Shown: one piece after another, positions 1-40,021 of the stretch
Position numbering within the stretch: position 1 is the stretch's first letter
How the letters are laid out: every line of letters starts with the position of its first letter
Source of the DNA: a virus
IMG/VR virus record: IMGVR_UViG_3300045988_095718
Coordinates: 1-40,021 of that record
DNA: 40,021 nt
Reading direction: 5' to 3' (one strand)
The notes under the pieces: model-generated
What the model was told of the DNA's origin: nothing
The model's input: the letters and a program-made list of their open reading frames with translations, nothing else
Database searches by the model: none
Made by a program: the position numbers and the translations under genes

Positions 1-36
1 GGCACTTTTGGAAACCGCCAGAGATGGCGGTTTTCC
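1..36 (+). repeat. Left copy of 36-bp perfect terminal direct repeat (att core or terminal overlap of a circular assembly)
   Basis: GGCACTTTTGGAAACCGCCAGAGATGGCGGTTTTCC is identical to 39986-40021. It contains a hairpin (GGAAACCGCCA / TGGCGGTTTTCC) followed by TTTATT, i.e. terminator-like. Confidence 0.9.
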
Positions 37-134: not shown

Positions 135-641
135 TCACCAGACCATCGGCAGTCCGAGGCATTGGCGCGCCCACTGTTCCACGGCACGATTCTCCTCGTC
201 GTCGCCAAGCAGCAATAAGTATCCGGCGTTCTTTCCGAGGGTGGCGGGCTGTAGACATTTGATGAGTCCTTGGTCGCGGAGGAATTTCCATGCTTGGACG
301 ATTCGGACCTTGGCGGTGCCTTCACGTGCTTTCATCGCGGCTTCCACCTCTTCTTCCGACTTGCCGATGACTTGCTCGGGGGAGAGTGCCATCATTCCGT
401 GGTCTTCGGCAAGCGTCTTCCAGCCCTTCGTGTAGTAGCGGCATGGATAGCCCTTGAATTTAGCGTCGCGGATTGGCTCTTGGTGTTCTCTGTCCCAGTC
501 GTAGCTTGAGAGCGCCATGTCGATGAGCATGAGTTCCGCCATCGTGTGCACCGTGATCTTGCCGCCTCGCGGCTTGAGCAGTTTTCCTGCGCGGCTGAGC
601 TCGTAGACTGCTCCAGCGTTGCGGTATCCCATCTTTTCCAT
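135..641 (-). CDS. Hypothetical protein, 168 aa (att-proximal accessory gene)
   Basis: ORF 135..782 trimmed to ATG 641, which is preceded by GGAGAGGAAAG. No family recognised by eye. Confidence 0.6.
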   Translation of the reverse strand: MEKMGYRNAGAVYELSRAGKLLKPRGGKITVHTMAELMLIDMALSSYDWDREHQEPIRDAKFKGYPCRYYTKGWKTLAEDHGMMALSPEQVIGKSEEEVEAAMKAREGTAKVRIVQAWKFLRDQGLIKCLQPATLGKNAGYLLLLGDDEENRAVEQWARQCLGLPMVW

Positions 642-782
642 CGCTTTCCTCTCCACGCCTAGAGGTAGAATCTTACGTGGAGACGCTAGTCCGTTTCCTG
701 CCCTTGGCGTGAGGTTTGAAGAGCACGCCAAGGGCTTTTCCTTATGTGAAATAATATACCACATGAGGTGTATTAAACACAC

Positions 783-957
783 CCACAGAGATAGATTATT
801 TTAAAACTCATAGGGATGTTTAAATATCCTATATACATGTATTACATGTGTTTATATATTTCTTTTACAAGAGCGCCAATGCACCGAAGAAAGGAAGAAT
901 CGGCACGTTCCAATCCCCATCTGTGGTAGCTTGAAGCAGAGAGAAGGAAGGGGAAAA
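783..957. promoter_or_regulatory. AT-rich divergent intergenic/promoter region
   Basis: Sharp GC drop. Imperfect inverted repeat ATAGGGAT..ATCCTAT (810-832) and TACATGT x2 (834-849). Lies between divergent genes 135..641(-) and 958..1743(+). Confidence 0.5.
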
Positions 958-1743
958 ATGAAGAAACTGATTTACTTCGTGCTATCCGTGCTGTGTGCAA
1001 TCTCCGGTATCTACGGCATATACGACACCATCACCACGCCGAAGTACGATCTGGCCACAAGCATCATTGCGGTTCTGCTCCTCGCATTCCTCGCATGGCT
1101 TTTCATGCATCTCTTCCTCAAGCCTGAGCCACGCCATAAGCATCAAGCGGAGAGTGCCCCTGAATCATCGTCGGAAGCCGTCTCAGACGCTCCAGCAGTG
1201 GAAACGGTACCAATCACTCATGCCGACACGAATGATGGCGTGGAGGACGATTACGTGGCCATCGACATCGAGACCACGGGATTGGGCAGAAGCGCTCGAA
1301 TCATCGAGCTAGGAGCCGTGAGAATCAGGCACGGACGCAAGGTCGCGTCATTCAGCCAGCTCGTCAACCCGCAGATTCCGATACCGGCCAAGGTCACGCA
1401 GATCAACGGCATCACCGACCGGGACGTCAAAGGCAAACCCACCATCGACAAAGCGCTACCCAAGTTCTACGCTTTTTGCGGTCATGATACGTGGATAGGG
1501 CACAATATTCGCCGCTTCGACCTGCCGGTCATCGCCCGCGAAGCCGAAAGAGCGGGCGTCGGCATGCCGGACGTCAGCTTCTACGACACCTTGGAAATCT
1601 CTCAGACACTCTTGCCGCAGCTTGACCGCCATAGGCTGCTCGACCTCATCCGCTATTTCGGCATCGCCAAGACGGAGCGTCATAGGGCCGCCGACGATGC
1701 CGCACAGACGGCACAGGTATTCGAGCGCCTGAAGCAAATATAA
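958..1743 (+). CDS. Membrane-anchored DEDDh (DnaQ / Pol III epsilon-like) 3'-5' exonuclease
   Basis: ATG 958 follows GAAGGAAGGGG. Two N-terminal hydrophobic helices (LIYFVLSVLCAISGIYGIY; IIAVLLLAFLAWLFMHLFL). Exo motifs DIETTGL, GHNIRRFD and HRAADDA. Confidence 0.85.
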   Translation: MKKLIYFVLSVLCAISGIYGIYDTITTPKYDLATSIIAVLLLAFLAWLFMHLFLKPEPRHKHQAESAPESSSEAVSDAPAVETVPITHADTNDGVEDDYVAIDIETTGLGRSARIIELGAVRIRHGRKVASFSQLVNPQIPIPAKVTQINGITDRDVKGKPTIDKALPKFYAFCGHDTWIGHNIRRFDLPVIAREAERAGVGMPDVSFYDTLEISQTLLPQLDRHRLLDLIRYFGIAKTERHRAADDAAQTAQVFERLKQI

Positions 1744-1772: not shown

Positions 1773-1795
1773 AAGCCCCACAGATTGTGGGGCTT
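1773..1795. terminator. Bidirectional intrinsic terminator between convergent genes
   Basis: AAGCCCCACA-GAT-TGTGGGGCTT, a 10-bp stem flanked by an A-run and a T-rich run. Confidence 0.75.
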
Positions 1796-1802
1796 AATGC
1801 TT

Positions 1803-2093
1803 TTAGAGACTGTTCACGGCATTATAGAATTCCTGCGCGTCCTCGGCTTTTTTGAATTTCAGCGGCAGTGAGCGCAACGCACTGTATTTCCATGTGACGG
1901 TGCGCTTCTTGATCGTCACTCCTTGCAGGTCGCTCACCTGGTATGCTTCGGTCTTCTTGTACCGGTGCAGGTACGTCGTGCAGACATCCAATTCCAGGCG
2001 ATTGGCATACAGGCGGATACCCATAAACAGCGGGTCGTCAAGCCTTTCGCACTCGTAGATCGCGTCCGGTGCTGGCTGTGGTCTCTTCGCCAT
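1803..2093 (-). CDS. Hypothetical 96-aa protein, third gene of the repressor-protease operon
   Basis: GAAGGGAG RBS. Lies 37 nt downstream of the ImmA-like gene on the same strand. Confidence 0.7.
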   Translation of the reverse strand: MAKRPQPAPDAIYECERLDDPLFMGIRLYANRLELDVCTTYLHRYKKTEAYQVSDLQGVTIKKRTVTWKYSALRSLPLKFKKAEDAQEFYNAVNSL

Positions 2094-2130: not shown

Positions 2131-2580
2131 TCAAATGATGCAGACTCGCTCAGACATTGCCAGTCGGAAGTCTCCGAGCACCTGCTGGGTCACCTCCAGT
2201 TCCTGGGAGATGTTCCACGAATTCCCTTCGTACATTTGTTCCAGCATGCCGTAGCGGAGTGGGTCTATCAGCGTCAAGGCAGTTTCGCGTCTCGCCCGCC
2301 GCTCTAATTTCGAACTATCGTTCGAACAGCCGGTGTCGCCATGCCGCCAGTGCAACAGCTCGTGAACGAGCGTGCACCGTTTCGCCGCATAAGTGAGCCG
2401 ACGATCAATCAGGATGACGCGGTTTTCGTCGTCGTAACAGCCCCATAATCCGTCCGGCAGTATGGCGCTGGATACGGCGACGGGCAGGCCGATGATGGCG
2501 CGGCGCATGGCCCCGTATGTCATGCGCCGGTCGATCGGCAGGTCAGGCAGGCTCGTCGTAATCCGGCCCAGCCTCTCCAT
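2131..2580 (-). CDS. ImmA/IrrE-family zinc metallopeptidase (anti-repressor protease)
   Basis: HEXXH motif in LVHELLHWRHGD. ATG 2580 is preceded by AGGAGG. The gene overlaps the 3' end of the repressor gene. Confidence 0.85.
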   Translation of the reverse strand: MERLGRITTSLPDLPIDRRMTYGAMRRAIIGLPVAVSSAILPDGLWGCYDDENRVILIDRRLTYAAKRCTLVHELLHWRHGDTGCSNDSSKLERRARRETALTLIDPLRYGMLEQMYEGNSWNISQELEVTQQVLGDFRLAMSERVCII

Positions 2581-2905
2581 TGATGGCCTCCTGCTTGCCA
2601 GCAGCGTCATAGGCGGCAAGACCATAACCGCCTGCCTGCGCTTTCCTCTCGGCGGCTTCGACCGCATGGCGTTTGGAGTCCATAACGATGTCTCCGATGG
2701 ATACGCCGGTCACTTCGCTGATGCGTTCCAGGTCACTCAGGTTGAGCGGGAGGCTGTAGTTTGCCCTCGTGTACCAGTAGACCTCGCCGAAGCCGCAGGC
2801 TTTGGCGAATTCCTTTATGGTCATGCCGCTTTGCTTTTGGAGCCTGACGCATTCGTCCATGACCTGCTTGGCGAAATGCGTGACCTCCTGTGCTTTTCTT
2901 CCCAT
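2543..2905 (-). CDS. XRE-family HTH repressor (CI-like)
   Basis: HTH segment MTIKEFAKACGFGEVYWYTRANY. Divergent from the Cro-like gene across an operator-containing intergenic region. Confidence 0.85.
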   Translation of the reverse strand: MGRKAQEVTHFAKQVMDECVRLQKQSGMTIKEFAKACGFGEVYWYTRANYSLPLNLSDLERISEVTGVSIGDIVMDSKRHAVEAAERKAQAGGYGLAAYDAAGKQEAINGEAGPDYDEPA

Positions 2906-14530: not shown

Positions 14531-15136
14531 ATGAATCTTGAGGTGCGGGAGTTCCCGATTTCCGAACTCCACACGTATCGTCGTAATCCACGTCGCGGTG
14601 ACGTGGATGCCATCGCATCCTCTCTGCGCAAGCGTGGCCAGTATCGTCCGATTGTGGTGAATATCGGCACGAACGCTTCGAAGCAGATGGAGATTCTAGC
14701 CGGCAATCACACGTATCTCGCTGCGAAGCAGCTCGGCTGGAAGACCATTCAGGCAACCACGGTCGATGTTGACGACGATCAGGCTGCACAGATCGTGCTG
14801 GCTGATAATCGTCTAGCCGATTTAGGTGGCTATGACGAGGCTGATTTGGCTGTCATCCTCCAGTCGGTGTCCGACCTTGAGGGCACTGGATATTCCGAGG
14901 ATGATTTGAAGACGATTCTTGCATCCGCAGGCAAGCCGTCCATATTGAATGACCCCGATGATGCGCCAGACGTGCCCGATGATGCGCCAGACGTGCCCGA
15001 TGATGGCAAGACGTTCACCAAGGAAGGCCAGATTTGGGAGCTAGGCGACAGTGTTCTCGCCGTCGGCTCCTGCACTGATGACGCTCTCGTGGACAAAGCG
15101 TTTTTTTGGGGGGCAGGCGGATTGCGTCTGGACTGA
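14531..15136 (+). CDS. ParB-like N-terminal nuclease/DNA-binding domain, upstream half of a frameshift-split ParB-methyltransferase
   Basis: ParB-N-like RRNPRRGD and ILAGNHTYLAAKQLG. The frame ends 9 codons after the T7G6 tract. Confidence 0.75.
   Translation: MNLEVREFPISELHTYRRNPRRGDVDAIASSLRKRGQYRPIVVNIGTNASKQMEILAGNHTYLAAKQLGWKTIQATTVDVDDDQAAQIVLADNRLADLGGYDEADLAVILQSVSDLEGTGYSEDDLKTILASAGKPSILNDPDDAPDVPDDAPDVPDDGKTFTKEGQIWELGDSVLAVGSCTDDALVDKAFFWGAGGLRLD
14957..15006 (+). repeat. 21-bp in-frame tandem repeat x2.4 (encodes DDAPDVP) in the ParB-MTase linker
   Basis: GATGATGCGCCAGACGTGCCC at 14957-14977 and 14978-14998, then a partial unit GATGATGG. Confidence 0.9.
15101..15113 (+). repeat. 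Homopolymer tract T7G6 at the ParB/MTase frame junction
   Basis: TTTTTTTGGGGGG read directly. Loss of one T or one G, or a +1 slip, fuses the two frames. Confidence 0.9.
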
Positions 15137-33530: not shown

Positions 33531-34175
33531 ATGGCATGGACTGCAACAGGCGGCAACCTTAAAGGACCCAAGGGCGATCCAGGTACGGACGGCGCGAAGG
33601 GAGATGCGGGCACGAGCCTGCACGTCGCCAACATCAGCGTCTCAAGCAACAGCGACGTGGCGACGAGCGTGCTCTCGCCATCTGCTCCGATTACGGTAGG
33701 AGATCTGATCTCCGACAACAACGGAGACTTATTCACGATCACTTCCATCGTCAACGAGACGACCGTCCACGTTTCCAACGTCATCAGCGGCGTGAGCTTT
33801 AAGGGACCGCAGGGTGAGAAAGGTACGGACGGAGCGCCCGGCAAGGACGGTACTGGTGTTACCATTCTCGGCTCGTATGATTCACTCGAAACGTTGAAAG
33901 CCGAACATCCAACTGGTAATGCAGGCGACGCTTATTTGGTTAACGGCCATCTGTACGTTTGGGATACGGTCGGCTCAGACTGGAAGGACGTCGGCACCAT
34001 CCAGGGACCGAAGGGTGATAAGGGCGAACCCGGAACGGATGGAACGGATGGTACGCCTGGCAAGGACGGTCTCGGATGGTCCTATGGACACGGCGTGCCA
34101 TCATCGACCGGAGTGCCGGTTGGCAGCCTATATCTCGACCTTGATACCGGCAACGTATATGCATTTAACGCCTAG
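33531..34175 (+). CDS. Collagen-like tail fibre protein
   Basis: G-X-Y runs GPKGDPGTDGAKGDAGT, GPQGEKGTDGAPGKDGTG and GPKGDKGEPGTDGTDGTPGKDG. C-terminal YLDLDTGNVYA. Confidence 0.75.
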   Translation: MAWTATGGNLKGPKGDPGTDGAKGDAGTSLHVANISVSSNSDVATSVLSPSAPITVGDLISDNNGDLFTITSIVNETTVHVSNVISGVSFKGPQGEKGTDGAPGKDGTGVTILGSYDSLETLKAEHPTGNAGDAYLVNGHLYVWDTVGSDWKDVGTIQGPKGDKGEPGTDGTDGTPGKDGLGWSYGHGVPSSTGVPVGSLYLDLDTGNVYAFNA

Positions 34176-34184
34176 GGGTGGAAT

Positions 34185-35084
34185 ATGACATGGTCCAATG
34201 TCGGAAATTTGAAAGGACCCAAAGGCGACGTGGGCGAGACCTCCGACGGTATTCCGCAGGGAGCGATCGTCTTAGCCTACAATGCCAGTCCAACGTATAA
34301 GTTACTGCAGGCAAGCGACGAATGGATCGAATCTGGGAATTTCACCATCGGAATAAACCGGCCAGCCTATGATAGCAGCGGCAATCCGACGCTGAATGAT
34401 ACCGGTTCAGGACAACGTCGGCTCGTCCTGTTCGCCAAGGCATATCCCGCATATACCGAAACAGTAGATGTCTTCATCGGCGATTCAACCACGGCGATTT
34501 GTGATACAGCACCGGTGGATAAAAACTGGACGACTCTGATCGCAAACGCTGACGGGATCAGCCCCGTCAATGTCGCGGTCTCCGGCGCTGGGTTCCTGAA
34601 CGATGCGGGCATAAAGCAGGCATACCCCGATCAGGTCACGACCGCAATCCGCAAGACGCAGGGAAAGACCGTCCGTCGAGTTTTCCTCGTCGGACTGTGG
34701 AATGATGAATACAGCATCAAATCAGATATGGATGCCGTGATAAATGCCATGACGAAGACCGCAGACATGATTAAATCCGCGTGGCCCGGAGCGCAGCTGA
34801 TCTACATCGTCGAGGTTGCGCCGCAGACCGAATATTCTAAGGGTATAGTTAAAGCATTCAGCAGCGTCTTTGATAAGGTGTACCAACTGTTCGAGAGCAA
34901 GGGCTTCAATGTCACGCGCGACTGGTTCGACTGGCTGCCGGATGGCAAGGCGAATGGATATATGCACGATAACATCCATCCTAATGCCAAAGGCATGAAT
35001 GTCGCCGCACACAAAATCCGTGAATGGGTCAACACGCTTTCGGGACTGAGGATTGACGGCGAGATTCCGGCATGGAGCGAATGA
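34185..35084 (+). CDS. Fibre-anchored SGNH/GDSL-type esterase
   Basis: N-terminus NLKGPKGDVGE resembles the preceding fibre gene. SGNH blocks FIGDST, GLWND and HDNIHPN. Confidence 0.75.
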   Translation: MTWSNVGNLKGPKGDVGETSDGIPQGAIVLAYNASPTYKLLQASDEWIESGNFTIGINRPAYDSSGNPTLNDTGSGQRRLVLFAKAYPAYTETVDVFIGDSTTAICDTAPVDKNWTTLIANADGISPVNVAVSGAGFLNDAGIKQAYPDQVTTAIRKTQGKTVRRVFLVGLWNDEYSIKSDMDAVINAMTKTADMIKSAWPGAQLIYIVEVAPQTEYSKGIVKAFSSVFDKVYQLFESKGFNVTRDWFDWLPDGKANGYMHDNIHPNAKGMNVAAHKIREWVNTLSGLRIDGEIPAWSE

Positions 35085-38782: not shown

Positions 38783-39952
38783 ATGGCCTACACGATCCGC
38801 CAATACCAGACGAAAAGCGGAAAAAGATACGAAGTCAGATACCGTAAGCCGGACGGCACGGACACCGGCAAACGCGGCTTCAAACGCAAAATGGACGCCG
38901 ATGCCTGGGGCGCAGCGAACGTGACCACAGCTAAAAGCGTCGGAGCGTACATCGACCCACAAGCCGGAAGACGCTTGGTCGAAGACTTCTGGGAGCCATG
39001 GCTGGCCGCAAAAAAGACCAAGGCCAAACCAAGCTACATCAAGTCGCTGGAAGACGCTTGGCGAGTGCATGTGGAGCCGCAGTGGGGCATGAGGGAGATG
39101 CAGTCAATCACGCGCGACGAAGTGCAGCGGTGGGTCACCGATCTGGCAGGACGACGCAGTGCGTCGGTGACGATTCGCGCCGAGAATCTGCTTCGCAGCC
39201 TCATGGAGAGAGCAAAGGCCGATCGGTGCATCCACGACAATCCATGCGACGGCATCGAGCTGCCGCGCAAGCAGGTGCGGAAGCATGTCTATCTGTCGGC
39301 CGATGAATTGTCTCGTGTGGCGATGCAGTGCGGGTGGCGTGAGCCGATTGTGCTGACCTTGGGCTTGTGCGGCATGAGGTGGGGTGAGCTCGTGGCGCTC
39401 CGTGTCGAGGATGTCGATCTGCAACGCTGTCGACTGCATATATATAAGAGCATCACGCGTCTTTCCAGCAGGATGGTGGAGACCGACCCGAAGACCCATG
39501 ATGGACGTTCGGTGATGTTCCCCCTGGTGTTGCGTCCGCTGCTCGCCAGGCAATGCGAGGGGCGCGAGCCGTCCGATTTCCTTTTCACCGCCCCCGGCGA
39601 GCCTTTGGACGAGCCGATGGGCAACGGCTGGAATCCGACGCGAAGCGATGGGTGGTTCGCGGTGGCTCTTCGTCGCGCGGGCGTGGACCGTGGCCACATG
39701 ACGATTCACGATCTACGCCATACGGCCGCTAGTCTCATGGTGCAGTCGGGCGCGAACGTCAAGACAGTGCAAAGGCAGTTGGGGCACAAGTCGGCCGCCA
39801 TGACATTGGATGTTTACGCCGATCTCTTCGATGATGATCTGGACGAGTTGTCGGAGAGGATGGGTGGTTTGCTTTTTTCGCGGAATGTGGGCAAAATGTG
39901 GGCAAACGTGACGCAAGGTGTCGATGAAACCGTTGAAACGGTTGGTGTCTGA
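38783..39952 (+). CDS. int: Tyrosine integrase
   Basis: C-terminal catalytic region HDLRHTAASLMVQSGANVKTVQRQLGHKSAAMTLDVYADLF. N-terminal SAM-like arm-binding region. Confidence 0.92.
   Translation: MAYTIRQYQTKSGKRYEVRYRKPDGTDTGKRGFKRKMDADAWGAANVTTAKSVGAYIDPQAGRRLVEDFWEPWLAAKKTKAKPSYIKSLEDAWRVHVEPQWGMREMQSITRDEVQRWVTDLAGRRSASVTIRAENLLRSLMERAKADRCIHDNPCDGIELPRKQVRKHVYLSADELSRVAMQCGWREPIVLTLGLCGMRWGELVALRVEDVDLQRCRLHIYKSITRLSSRMVETDPKTHDGRSVMFPLVLRPLLARQCEGREPSDFLFTAPGEPLDEPMGNGWNPTRSDGWFAVALRRAGVDRGHMTIHDLRHTAASLMVQSGANVKTVQRQLGHKSAAMTLDVYADLFDDDLDELSERMGGLLFSRNVGKMWANVTQGVDETVETVGV
39887..39904 (+). repeat. Second copy of GTGGGCAAAATGTGGGCA, inside the 3' end of the integrase gene
   Basis: Exact match to 112-129. 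Confidence 0.7.
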
Positions 39953-39989
39953 GGCTTTTCGCCGGTGGGTTCGAGTCCCGCTGGAGGCA
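39953..39989 (+). tRNA. tRNA 3' fragment only (variable region, T arm, acceptor 3' strand, discriminator); att-associated
   Basis: GTGGG-TTCGAGT-CCCGC T arm, then TGGAGGC and A. No matching 5' acceptor strand (GCCTCCA) lies upstream. Confidence 0.65.
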
Positions 39990-40021
39990 CTTTTGGAAAC
40001 CGCCAGAGATGGCGGTTTTCC
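39986..40021 (+). repeat. Right copy of 36-bp perfect terminal direct repeat
   Basis: Identical to 1-36. Its first 4 nt are the last acceptor bases plus discriminator of the adjacent tRNA 3' fragment. Confidence 0.9.

Follow-up and report, generated by a model that had tools for sequence, protein, structure and literature searches.

The DNA analysed here, referred to below as the window, is the whole of IMG/VR virus record IMGVR_UViG_3300045988_095718 (40,021 bp), which is classed as 100% complete and carries direct terminal repeats. Our subject is the gene located at 958-1743, whose product (P0001) is predicted to be a 3'-5' exonuclease of the DEDDh type tethered to the membrane by its N-terminus, together with the transcription unit in which this gene lies. 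The gene, the segments of its product, given in amino acids (aa), and the elements that surround it, including a leader with a ribosome-binding site (RBS), are as follows; "unstranded" is used for features to which no strand was assigned.

958..1743, plus strand: gene for the putative membrane-tethered DEDDh exonuclease (P0001), 261 aa with no internal stop (translation of the open reading frame, ORF)
967..1119, plus strand: predicted membrane anchor formed by two helices (residues 4-22 and 32-54) and a short loop between them (residues 23-31) (hydropathy, AlphaFold2)
1120..1248, plus strand: acidic, Ser-rich linker predicted to be disordered, residues 55-97 (~43 aa) (AlphaFold2 predicted local distance difference test score, pLDDT, <50 at residues 56-94)
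1249..1740, plus strand: DEDDh 3'-5' exonuclease domain (PF00929 match)
1264-1284, plus strand: ExoI motif DIETTGL, within the exonuclease domain
1498-1521, plus strand: ExoII motif GHNIRRFD, within the exonuclease domain
1681-1701, plus strand: ExoIII motif HRAADDA, within the exonuclease domain
642..957, unstranded: divergent intergenic region with an AT-rich block and the leader with RBS (GC content, promoter scan, leader alignment)
832-860, plus strand: weak sigma-70-like promoter site (9/12 matches)
1773..1795, unstranded: bidirectional hairpin terminator, common to the exonuclease gene and the convergent gene ORF96 (called on both strands; 10 pairs, 6 of them G-C)

The first-pass annotation of the window had described the product as two hydrophobic helices followed by an acidic/Ser linker and a complete DEDDh domain, an architecture that was confirmed by hydropathy, structure modelling, a Pfam match and the catalytic residues. 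The Kyte-Doolittle profile (19-residue window) peaked at 2.03 over residues 4-22 and reached up to 2.71 over residues 32-54. The AlphaFold2 model, which was built on a 44-sequence alignment, contains helices at residues 2-26 and 32-53, a disordered stretch at residues 56-94 and a confident exonuclease domain at residues 99-259 with pLDDT >90. The residues MKK stand ahead of helix 1 and KPEPRHKH behind helix 2, and the loop between the two helices is neutral to acidic. Because Lys and Arg residues are found before helix 1 and after helix 2, the positive-inside rule would place both termini in the cytoplasm, in agreement with the topology proposed in the first-pass annotation, and the exonuclease domain is thus predicted to lie on the cytoplasmic side of the membrane.

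The Pfam profile PF00929 (RNase_T) matched residues 100-255 over its entire length (profile positions 1-164 of 164), with an E-value of 4.5e-34 and 118.8 bits for a cut-off of 24. The catalytic residues D103, E105, D188, H242 and D247 were invariant in the 44-sequence alignment, in which identity goes down to 32%. When the model was compared with known structures using Foldseek, the top matches were a DnaQ domain from Streptococcus (8h2f), the PolC exonuclease (9qpc and 2p1j), the DinG exonuclease bound to single-stranded DNA (9ii8) and the epsilon subunit (2ido); the match to 8h2f had an E-value of 2.2e-13, a TM-score on the target of 0.87 and a root mean square deviation of 2.1. Judged by these residues and by the modelled fold, the product is a DEDDh 3'-5' exonuclease of the PolC/DnaQ/DinG-exonuclease type with its catalytic site intact. 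Selection on the gene was estimated as the pooled Nei-Gojobori ratio of nonsynonymous to synonymous substitution rates (dN/dS) over 61 distinct alleles, which gave 0.11 for the exonuclease domain, 0.37 and 0.39 for helix 1 and helix 2 of the anchor, 0.51 for the linker and 0.86 for the outer loop. These ratios point to strong constraint on the enzyme, to an anchor constrained as is usual for hydrophobic helices, and to a linker and a loop that evolve nearly freely. The linker differs in length among alleles, which encode proteins of 251-264 aa.

The exonuclease gene is flanked on both sides by oppositely oriented genes. A Shine-Dalgarno-like GAAGGAAGGGG is found immediately 5' of its ATG, and alignment of 55 distinct upstream sequences revealed a conserved leader of ~100 nt that carries this RBS. 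The GC content is 0.31 at 751-900 compared to 0.57-0.60 in the flanking coding DNA, and a terminator hairpin is predicted at 1773-1795 for both strands, two observations that bear out the AT-rich promoter region and the bidirectional terminator attributed to the gene at first reading. The hairpin is kept in loci with the exonuclease gene, in loci without it and in loci with alternative cargo. Taken together, these results support the view that the exonuclease gene is an independent transcription unit, with its own promoter-like region and its own terminator. A structured RNA in the 5' leader was ruled out by an Rfam search, which gave no match at E <0.09, and by the fold energy, which was equal to that of shuffled sequences (z = 0.00). 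Control of the exonuclease promoter by the phage repressor was also rejected, as the repressor operator palindrome was found at 2959 and 2983 only and not near this promoter. It should be noted that a near-palindrome (TATATACATGTA/TACATGTGTTTA) at 830-854 overlaps the -35 element of the promoter-like site and may be an operator.

The position of the gene is defined by the attachment site (att), the integrase and the immunity operon, which are listed here with the two neighbouring genes.

1..36, unstranded: direct terminal repeat of 36 bp (att core / prophage end), with an identical copy at 39986-40021
38783..39952, plus strand: tyrosine integrase, at the other prophage end (PF00589, E 2.9e-20)
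135..641, minus strand: ORF168, the divergent neighbour, 168 aa, with three alleles (~95%, 52% and 35% identity)
1803..2093, minus strand: ORF96, last gene of the immunity operon, variable cargo with no family match
2131-2580, minus strand: ImmA/IrrE-type metalloprotease (PF06114, phrog_87)
2543-2905, minus strand: XRE-type repressor (helix-turn-helix matches)

In the circular form of the phage, the integrase adjoins the cargo slot across att, and the gene order is integrase, att, ORF168 (minus), exonuclease gene (plus), ORF96 (minus), ImmA (minus), repressor (minus) and the rightward early genes; the right boundary of the slot is formed by ImmA and the repressor (2131..2905). The gene thus lies between att and the immunity operon and outside the replication module, as the first-pass annotation had stated. 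A terminator-like hairpin is present at 10-35, inside the 36-bp att repeat. Homologues of the exonuclease gene were found in Bifidobacterium chromosomes, B. adolescentis being the species named by NCBI, and the left-arm block stands directly beside host genes in Bifidobacterium contigs (a DUF3052 gene in three cases and an MFS transporter gene in one). The terminal repeat, the integrase and the homologous block beside host genes show the window to be a complete temperate phage of Bifidobacterium, ~40 kb long and cut within att at the core. In a Bifidobacterium contig (L162:9185-11127), portal, protease and capsid genes directly follow ImmA; this contig looks like a prophage stripped of its whole early region that still carries ORF168, the exonuclease gene, ORF96 and ImmA.

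The content of the slot was compared among related phages using the ImmA protease as bait, which yielded 80 loci, 67 of which cover the whole ImmA-to-ORF168 interval. The full exonuclease gene was present in 37 of these 67 phages and an in-frame remnant in 3, while the remaining 27 carried no such gene. In the remnant, residue 17 is followed directly by residue 201, which yields a 76-aa ORF made of the first 17 residues of helix 1 and the last 60 residues of the protein; it was seen at L074:1080-1310, and the same junction occurs in L075-L078 and L230-L232. According to the DNA alignment, locus L208 holds only about the last 60 nt of the exonuclease gene and is a deletion derivative. In two other loci (L179:6936-7640 and L200:7255-7989, both on the minus strand), an unrelated ORF of 234-244 aa is found in place of the exonuclease gene, preceded by the same leader and RBS and followed by the same terminator. 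This replacement ORF has no match in Pfam or PADLOC and is a candidate for another exclusion or defence gene. Further occupants of the slot were two lipoproteins, a protein with a transmembrane (TM) segment plus a coiled coil, a bPH_2 protein and a nuclease-like HSDR_N protein (N-terminal domain of the type I restriction R subunit, PD-(D/E)xK-like). The latter, of ~362-366 aa, is encoded at L172:6485-7573 and at L248:2743-3843, and in L248 its gene directly adjoins a gene for a DEDDh protein with two TM helices (2TM-DEDDh). Because an unrelated ORF shares the leader and the terminator, and because the leader is conserved, the unit is best described as a fixed expression site with exchangeable cargo. 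The exonuclease gene is therefore a dispensable, single-gene accessory cassette (a moron), and the variation in its presence, its deletion remnants and its replacement by other cargo in related phages bear out the accessory slot postulated at the outset.

More than 200 full-length homologues, 77-93% identical to the window protein, retain the N-terminal helices. This cargo is highly abundant in metagenomes of the human gut, where single clusters at 90% identity comprise hundreds of member sequences. Among 1.84 billion representatives searched, 2TM-DEDDh relatives of ~240-270 aa with 37-61% identity were identified. In these distant relatives, the 2TM hairpin is followed by a basic stretch, K-x-DPEARF-x-(R/K)n, which gives a stronger charge pattern than that of the window protein, and the linker is shorter and basic, the acidic linker not being conserved. 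All four distant relatives for which usable contigs were available (B. animalis P0283, P0129, P0282, P0284) are encoded between integrase and early genes; they are 45-54% identical to one another and sit in different Bifidobacterium prophages. One of the four has the second DEDDh protein and the PDC-S22 match described below beside it, and another has an HSDR_N protein as its neighbour. The TM-DEDDh design was thus found to recur in the integrase-to-repressor interval of other Bifidobacterium prophages. Because the helices are kept in more than 200 homologues and in the distant relatives, this architecture is more than a chance occurrence.

In the wider clade, the nearest 139 exonuclease representatives at 50% identity included 25 with an N-terminal and 4 with a C-terminal hydrophobic segment, so that the statement of the first-pass annotation that DnaQ-type domains are normally soluble was too strong. 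On a maximum-likelihood tree, the N-terminal-anchor label requires at least 16 changes, a count that depends on a weak backbone and on some TM-less neighbours that may be truncated gene calls. Membrane anchoring is nonetheless recurrent, not exceptional, in this exonuclease clade. The genes recovered by a contig scan with exonuclease-domain patterns were mostly unrelated, encode multidomain DEDDh proteins and come from many phyla; they have no bearing on the anchor. In locus L245 (7759-10266), a second DEDDh protein of 520 aa, the C-terminal half of which has no family match, is encoded convergently with a 2TM-DEDDh gene, and the KilA-N protein beside it is a full-length match to the PADLOC candidate PDC-S22 (E 9e-107).

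A protein search of INPHARED gave no record covering >68% of the exonuclease query. Two of its matches, OR846923.1 (L249) and MT837494.1 (L250), labelled 'Bacteriophage sp.' and 'Listeria phage', were rejected, as their open frames of 675 and 1164 aa are bacterial PolC fragments and not phage exonucleases. Gp33 of the C. difficile phage phiCDHM11, a soluble DEDDh protein encoded in the lysogeny region and devoid of a hydrophobic segment, was considered a parallel and not a member of the family. Whole-query matches in BFVD comprised a Siphoviridae sp. protein and the exonucleases of Mycobacterium phage Omnicron and of the Gordonia phages GMA5 and GRU3; these matches hint that there may be more anchored relatives.

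Regarding the neighbouring genes, the first-pass annotation had suggested that ORF168 could be a partner or a regulator of the exonuclease, which did not hold. ORF168 is present in every phage of the group, and each of its three alleles is found both with and without the exonuclease gene. These alleles, down to 35% identity, share a near-identical C-terminus (GDDEENRAVE.WARQCLGLP). Searches of Pfam, PHROG, NCBIfam and PADLOC gave no match to ORF168. Its AlphaFold2 model (pLDDT 90, predicted TM-score 0.83) had no significant counterpart in the PDB by sequence or by fold, the best Foldseek match (E 0.3) being local and winged-helix-like. With neither a significant sequence or fold match nor any co-variation with the exonuclease gene, ORF168 was rejected as a recognisable regulator or partner. 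ORF96, found in about half of the loci, accompanies the exonuclease gene in 28 cases; the exonuclease gene was found without ORF96 in 9 and ORF96 without the exonuclease gene in 12. Neither ORF168 nor ORF96 is thus a dedicated partner, each being found in the presence as well as in the absence of the exonuclease gene. A perfect 12-bp inverted repeat (GCCCTTGGCGTG / CACGCCAAGGGC) was observed at 700-735, within the leader of ORF168.

Two repeats were observed elsewhere in the window. A perfect 21-bp tandem duplication (CCCGATGATGCGCCAGACGTG, two copies) is located at 14954-14995 within the gene for a ParB-like protein, and a 48-nt unit is present at 33549-34247 in four diverged copies spaced by 201-240 bp, each with a short G-rich (Gly-codon-rich) motif. 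The copies of this unit sit in ORFs near a GDSL-lipase-like gene and possibly belong to a collagen-like tail-fibre or receptor-binding region.

The exonuclease was compared with known membrane-associated nucleases. In E. coli, SNIPE (PD-lambda-1), a GIY-YIG nuclease anchored by a TM segment, cleaves the DNA of phage lambda as it is being injected (Saxton et al., Nature 2026; PMC13190303). SNIPE discriminates self from non-self by its location and, when deprived of its TM segment, is toxic and attacks the chromosome; its DUF4041 domain, which binds DNA and the tape measure protein, is essential, and its homologues carry one or two N-terminal TM helices that are poorly conserved in sequence (PMC13190303). 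Like SNIPE, the window protein would combine an N-terminal membrane anchor with a cytoplasmic nuclease, as predicted from its helices and charge pattern; unlike SNIPE, it is an exonuclease of the DEDDh type in which nothing but a disordered linker lies between anchor and nuclease, and it is prophage cargo. GIY-YIG and DUF4041 in Pfam and the PD-Lambda-1 profile in PADLOC gave no match in the exonuclease protein. M. smegmatis has a chromosomally encoded 3'-5' exonuclease with a membrane anchor, Mpr (multicopy phage resistance), whose anchor and nuclease activity are both needed against phage D29; the nuclease region of Mpr is unlike any known nuclease, and a DUF4352 domain at its C-terminus is also required (PMC12596739). 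By contrast, the exonuclease described here is prophage cargo with a known DEDDh fold, and no Pfam match to DUF4352 was found in it. It thus belongs to neither SNIPE nor Mpr, the proposed likeness being limited to the mode of working.

The best matches in sequence and in structure, which share the fold and all five catalytic residues of the window protein, are the PolC-type, DnaQ (epsilon) and DinG N-terminal domains; these are soluble and reside within polymerases, helicases or the replisome, whereas the domain described here is on its own and attached to a membrane anchor. The mammalian DEDDh 3'-5' DNA exonuclease TREX1 is dimeric, is tail-anchored in the endoplasmic reticulum by a single C-terminal helix and removes unwanted cytosolic DNA. 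Like TREX1, the window protein is predicted to be a DEDDh exonuclease on a membrane facing the cytosol, but its anchor is formed by two N-terminal helices, unlike the C-terminal anchor of the eukaryotic enzyme, and TREX1 is not its nearest relative; the TREX1 homologue Plex9.1 was a Foldseek match with an E-value of 4.8e-10. The DEDDh domain is also shared with PADLOC PDC-S48 and with the CRISPR-associated DEDDh proteins (Cas2-DEDDh, PDB 8fy9), with PADLOC E-values of 6.5e-30 and 2.6e-37; the match to PDC-S48 is only partial (profile positions 4-166 of 411, and 8-179 of 512). No Cas matches were found in Pfam, PHROG or PADLOC among the neighbours ORF168, ORF96, ImmA and the repressor.

Prophages also encode membrane superinfection exclusion (Sie) proteins, such as Sie2009, Ltp and P22 SieA. 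In actinobacteriophages, Sbash gp30/31, encoded close to the prophage end and next to the repressor and an IrrE-like gene, is cargo expressed in the lysogen and acts like RexAB, through membrane depolarisation (PMC6426596). The exonuclease gene resembles these systems in being cargo near the prophage end, where membrane proteins are often encoded, and differs from them in that none is a nuclease of the DEDDh type. The soluble DnaQ-like proteins found in temperate mycobacteriophages are toxic to the cell and are not required for lytic growth. Literature searches found no characterised membrane-anchored DEDDh or DnaQ-like defence protein. Membrane-localised nuclease defence has been established recently, and a DEDDh exonuclease cassette with such a design would be a new variant of it, with a function proposed by analogy.

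By this analogy, we propose that the exonuclease is expressed in the lysogen and serves in exclusion or defence by attacking DNA at its ends as it comes in, a reading to which we give about an even chance. The gene would be transcribed in the lysogen from its own promoter. Its product would be held at the cytoplasmic face of the membrane by the two-helix hairpin, the ~43-residue linker giving it flexibility, and would meet only those free 3' ends that occur there, namely those of linear DNA arriving through the envelope. Because the chromosome offers no free ends, a membrane exonuclease would be inherently selective for linear incoming DNA. The ends of cos-type actinobacteriophages are 3' single-stranded cohesive ends, and trimming of these extensions would block circularisation and leave the DNA open to further degradation. 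As an outcome, superinfecting phages would be excluded and the chromosome, having no ends, would be unharmed.

This proposal is consistent with the intact enzyme, the confident fold, the conserved anchor and the purifying selection on domain and helices, as well as with the independence of the transcription unit, the accessory behaviour of the gene, the envelope- or nuclease-type nature of other slot cargo, the location of the relatives in the integrase-to-early-gene interval and the recurrence of membrane anchors in the clade. SNIPE and Mpr provide precedents for it, and the soluble DnaQ-like phage proteins mentioned above also fit. That the repressor operator palindrome is not near the exonuclease promoter also speaks for it, as negative evidence only. 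Several points weigh against it. Transcription in the lysogen is deduced from the gene layout alone, the promoter match is weak (9/12) and promoter-like sites are only modestly more numerous in the region than in shuffled sequences. The PADLOC matches are at the domain level only. Unlike SNIPE, the protein has no extra domain for DNA binding or tape-measure recognition by which it could find the entry site. Finally, single-stranded 3' ends are the preferred substrate of the DEDDh enzymes in this clade, and genomes with blunt ends or 5' overhangs might therefore escape.

The exonuclease could also act on targets other than superinfecting phages. It shares its strand with the lytic genes and might serve the phage itself during lytic growth or establishment, by degrading the ends of host or competitor DNA, by removing single-stranded DNA that triggers defence or by recycling nucleotides; the DnaQ-like genes of temperate mycobacteriophages, which are accessory and of unknown role, are compatible with such a function. 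This is nevertheless unlikely, since the immunity operon on the opposite strand, ORF168 and the att hairpin separate the gene from the lytic operons, the gene has its own terminator, and the conserved membrane anchor would be left without a reason. The same architecture and position would fit a cassette that excludes transforming single-stranded DNA or conjugating DNA instead of phage DNA, and that shields the host of the prophage from other mobile elements. In the natural transformation of Gram-positive bacteria, single-stranded DNA enters 3' end first, and the closest structural relatives of the protein (the PolC exonuclease, epsilon and the DinG exonuclease bound to single-stranded DNA) act on single-stranded 3' ends. 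However, nothing in the data ties the exonuclease gene to competence or conjugation genes, the other slot cargo resembles phage-exclusion genes and plasmid transformation is not blocked by SNIPE (PMC13190303), which makes a role against such elements quite improbable.

A more drastic function would be that of a latent abortive-infection toxin, kept harmless at the membrane until infection frees it, for instance through cutting of the linker, whereupon it would degrade the DNA of cell and phage alike. The long, disordered and fast-evolving linker, the ImmA-type protease encoded nearby and the toxicity of soluble DnaQ-like proteins and of TM-less SNIPE could all be understood in this way. Yet the linkers of the distant relatives are short and basic, ImmA is present in related phages regardless of the exonuclease gene, and an exonuclease requires pre-existing DNA ends; we therefore regard a latent toxin as very unlikely. 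A further possibility is that the gene encodes an ordinary subunit for replication or proofreading whose N-terminus was mispredicted, or that it is decaying and without function; the source labels of such proteins ('PolC-type DNA polymerase III' or 'epsilon subunit') and the annotation of phrog_192 as 'DNA polymerase exonuclease subunit' would favour the former. The scores against the NCBIfam equivalogs are, however, far below their cut-offs (135.7 vs 873 for PolC, 62.4 vs 222.7 for dnaQ_proteo and 58.2 vs 196 for PRK05711), and none of the ten early/middle ORFs scanned matched a DNA polymerase family; these ORFs included a recombination exonuclease, a primase-helicase, a ParB-like protein, a methylase and a terminase, RusA being found separately. 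In addition, the gene sits outside the replication module and is absent or deleted in 30 of the 67 related phages, its start codon is backed by an RBS, and the anchor is under purifying selection. Decay is unlikely because dN/dS of the domain is 0.11. A replicative or functionless gene is thus hardly credible, and the earlier view that the gene stands apart from replication is borne out by its dispensability and by the lack of a polymerase match among the ten ORFs.

Returning to the exclusion of superinfecting phages by the anchored exonuclease, membrane-localised cutting of entering phage DNA has been shown only recently, with SNIPE. Tentatively, and with more doubt than confidence, we suggest that the cassette may represent a minimal immune device free of any recognition step: a plain membrane-anchored 3'-5' exonuclease that would distinguish self from non-self on the basis of geometry and DNA topology alone, attacking only the free ends found at the membrane, and would strip the 3' cohesive ends of incoming actinophage genomes and thereby prevent their circularisation. 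Such a device would be the equivalent, in bacteria, of TREX1 and would parallel SNIPE by means of an exonuclease; it would be carried as a swappable cassette by gut Bifidobacterium prophages and may have arisen many times in this clade. If this is true, the principle of membrane-localised cutting would extend to another class of nucleases, with an exonuclease devoid of a recognition domain, and to the Gram-positive Actinobacteria and prophage cargo abundant in the gut. It would also help to explain why Bifidobacterium strains are hard to infect or to transform, which is relevant to work on probiotic strains, and the cassette slot provides a ready list of further candidate exclusion genes.

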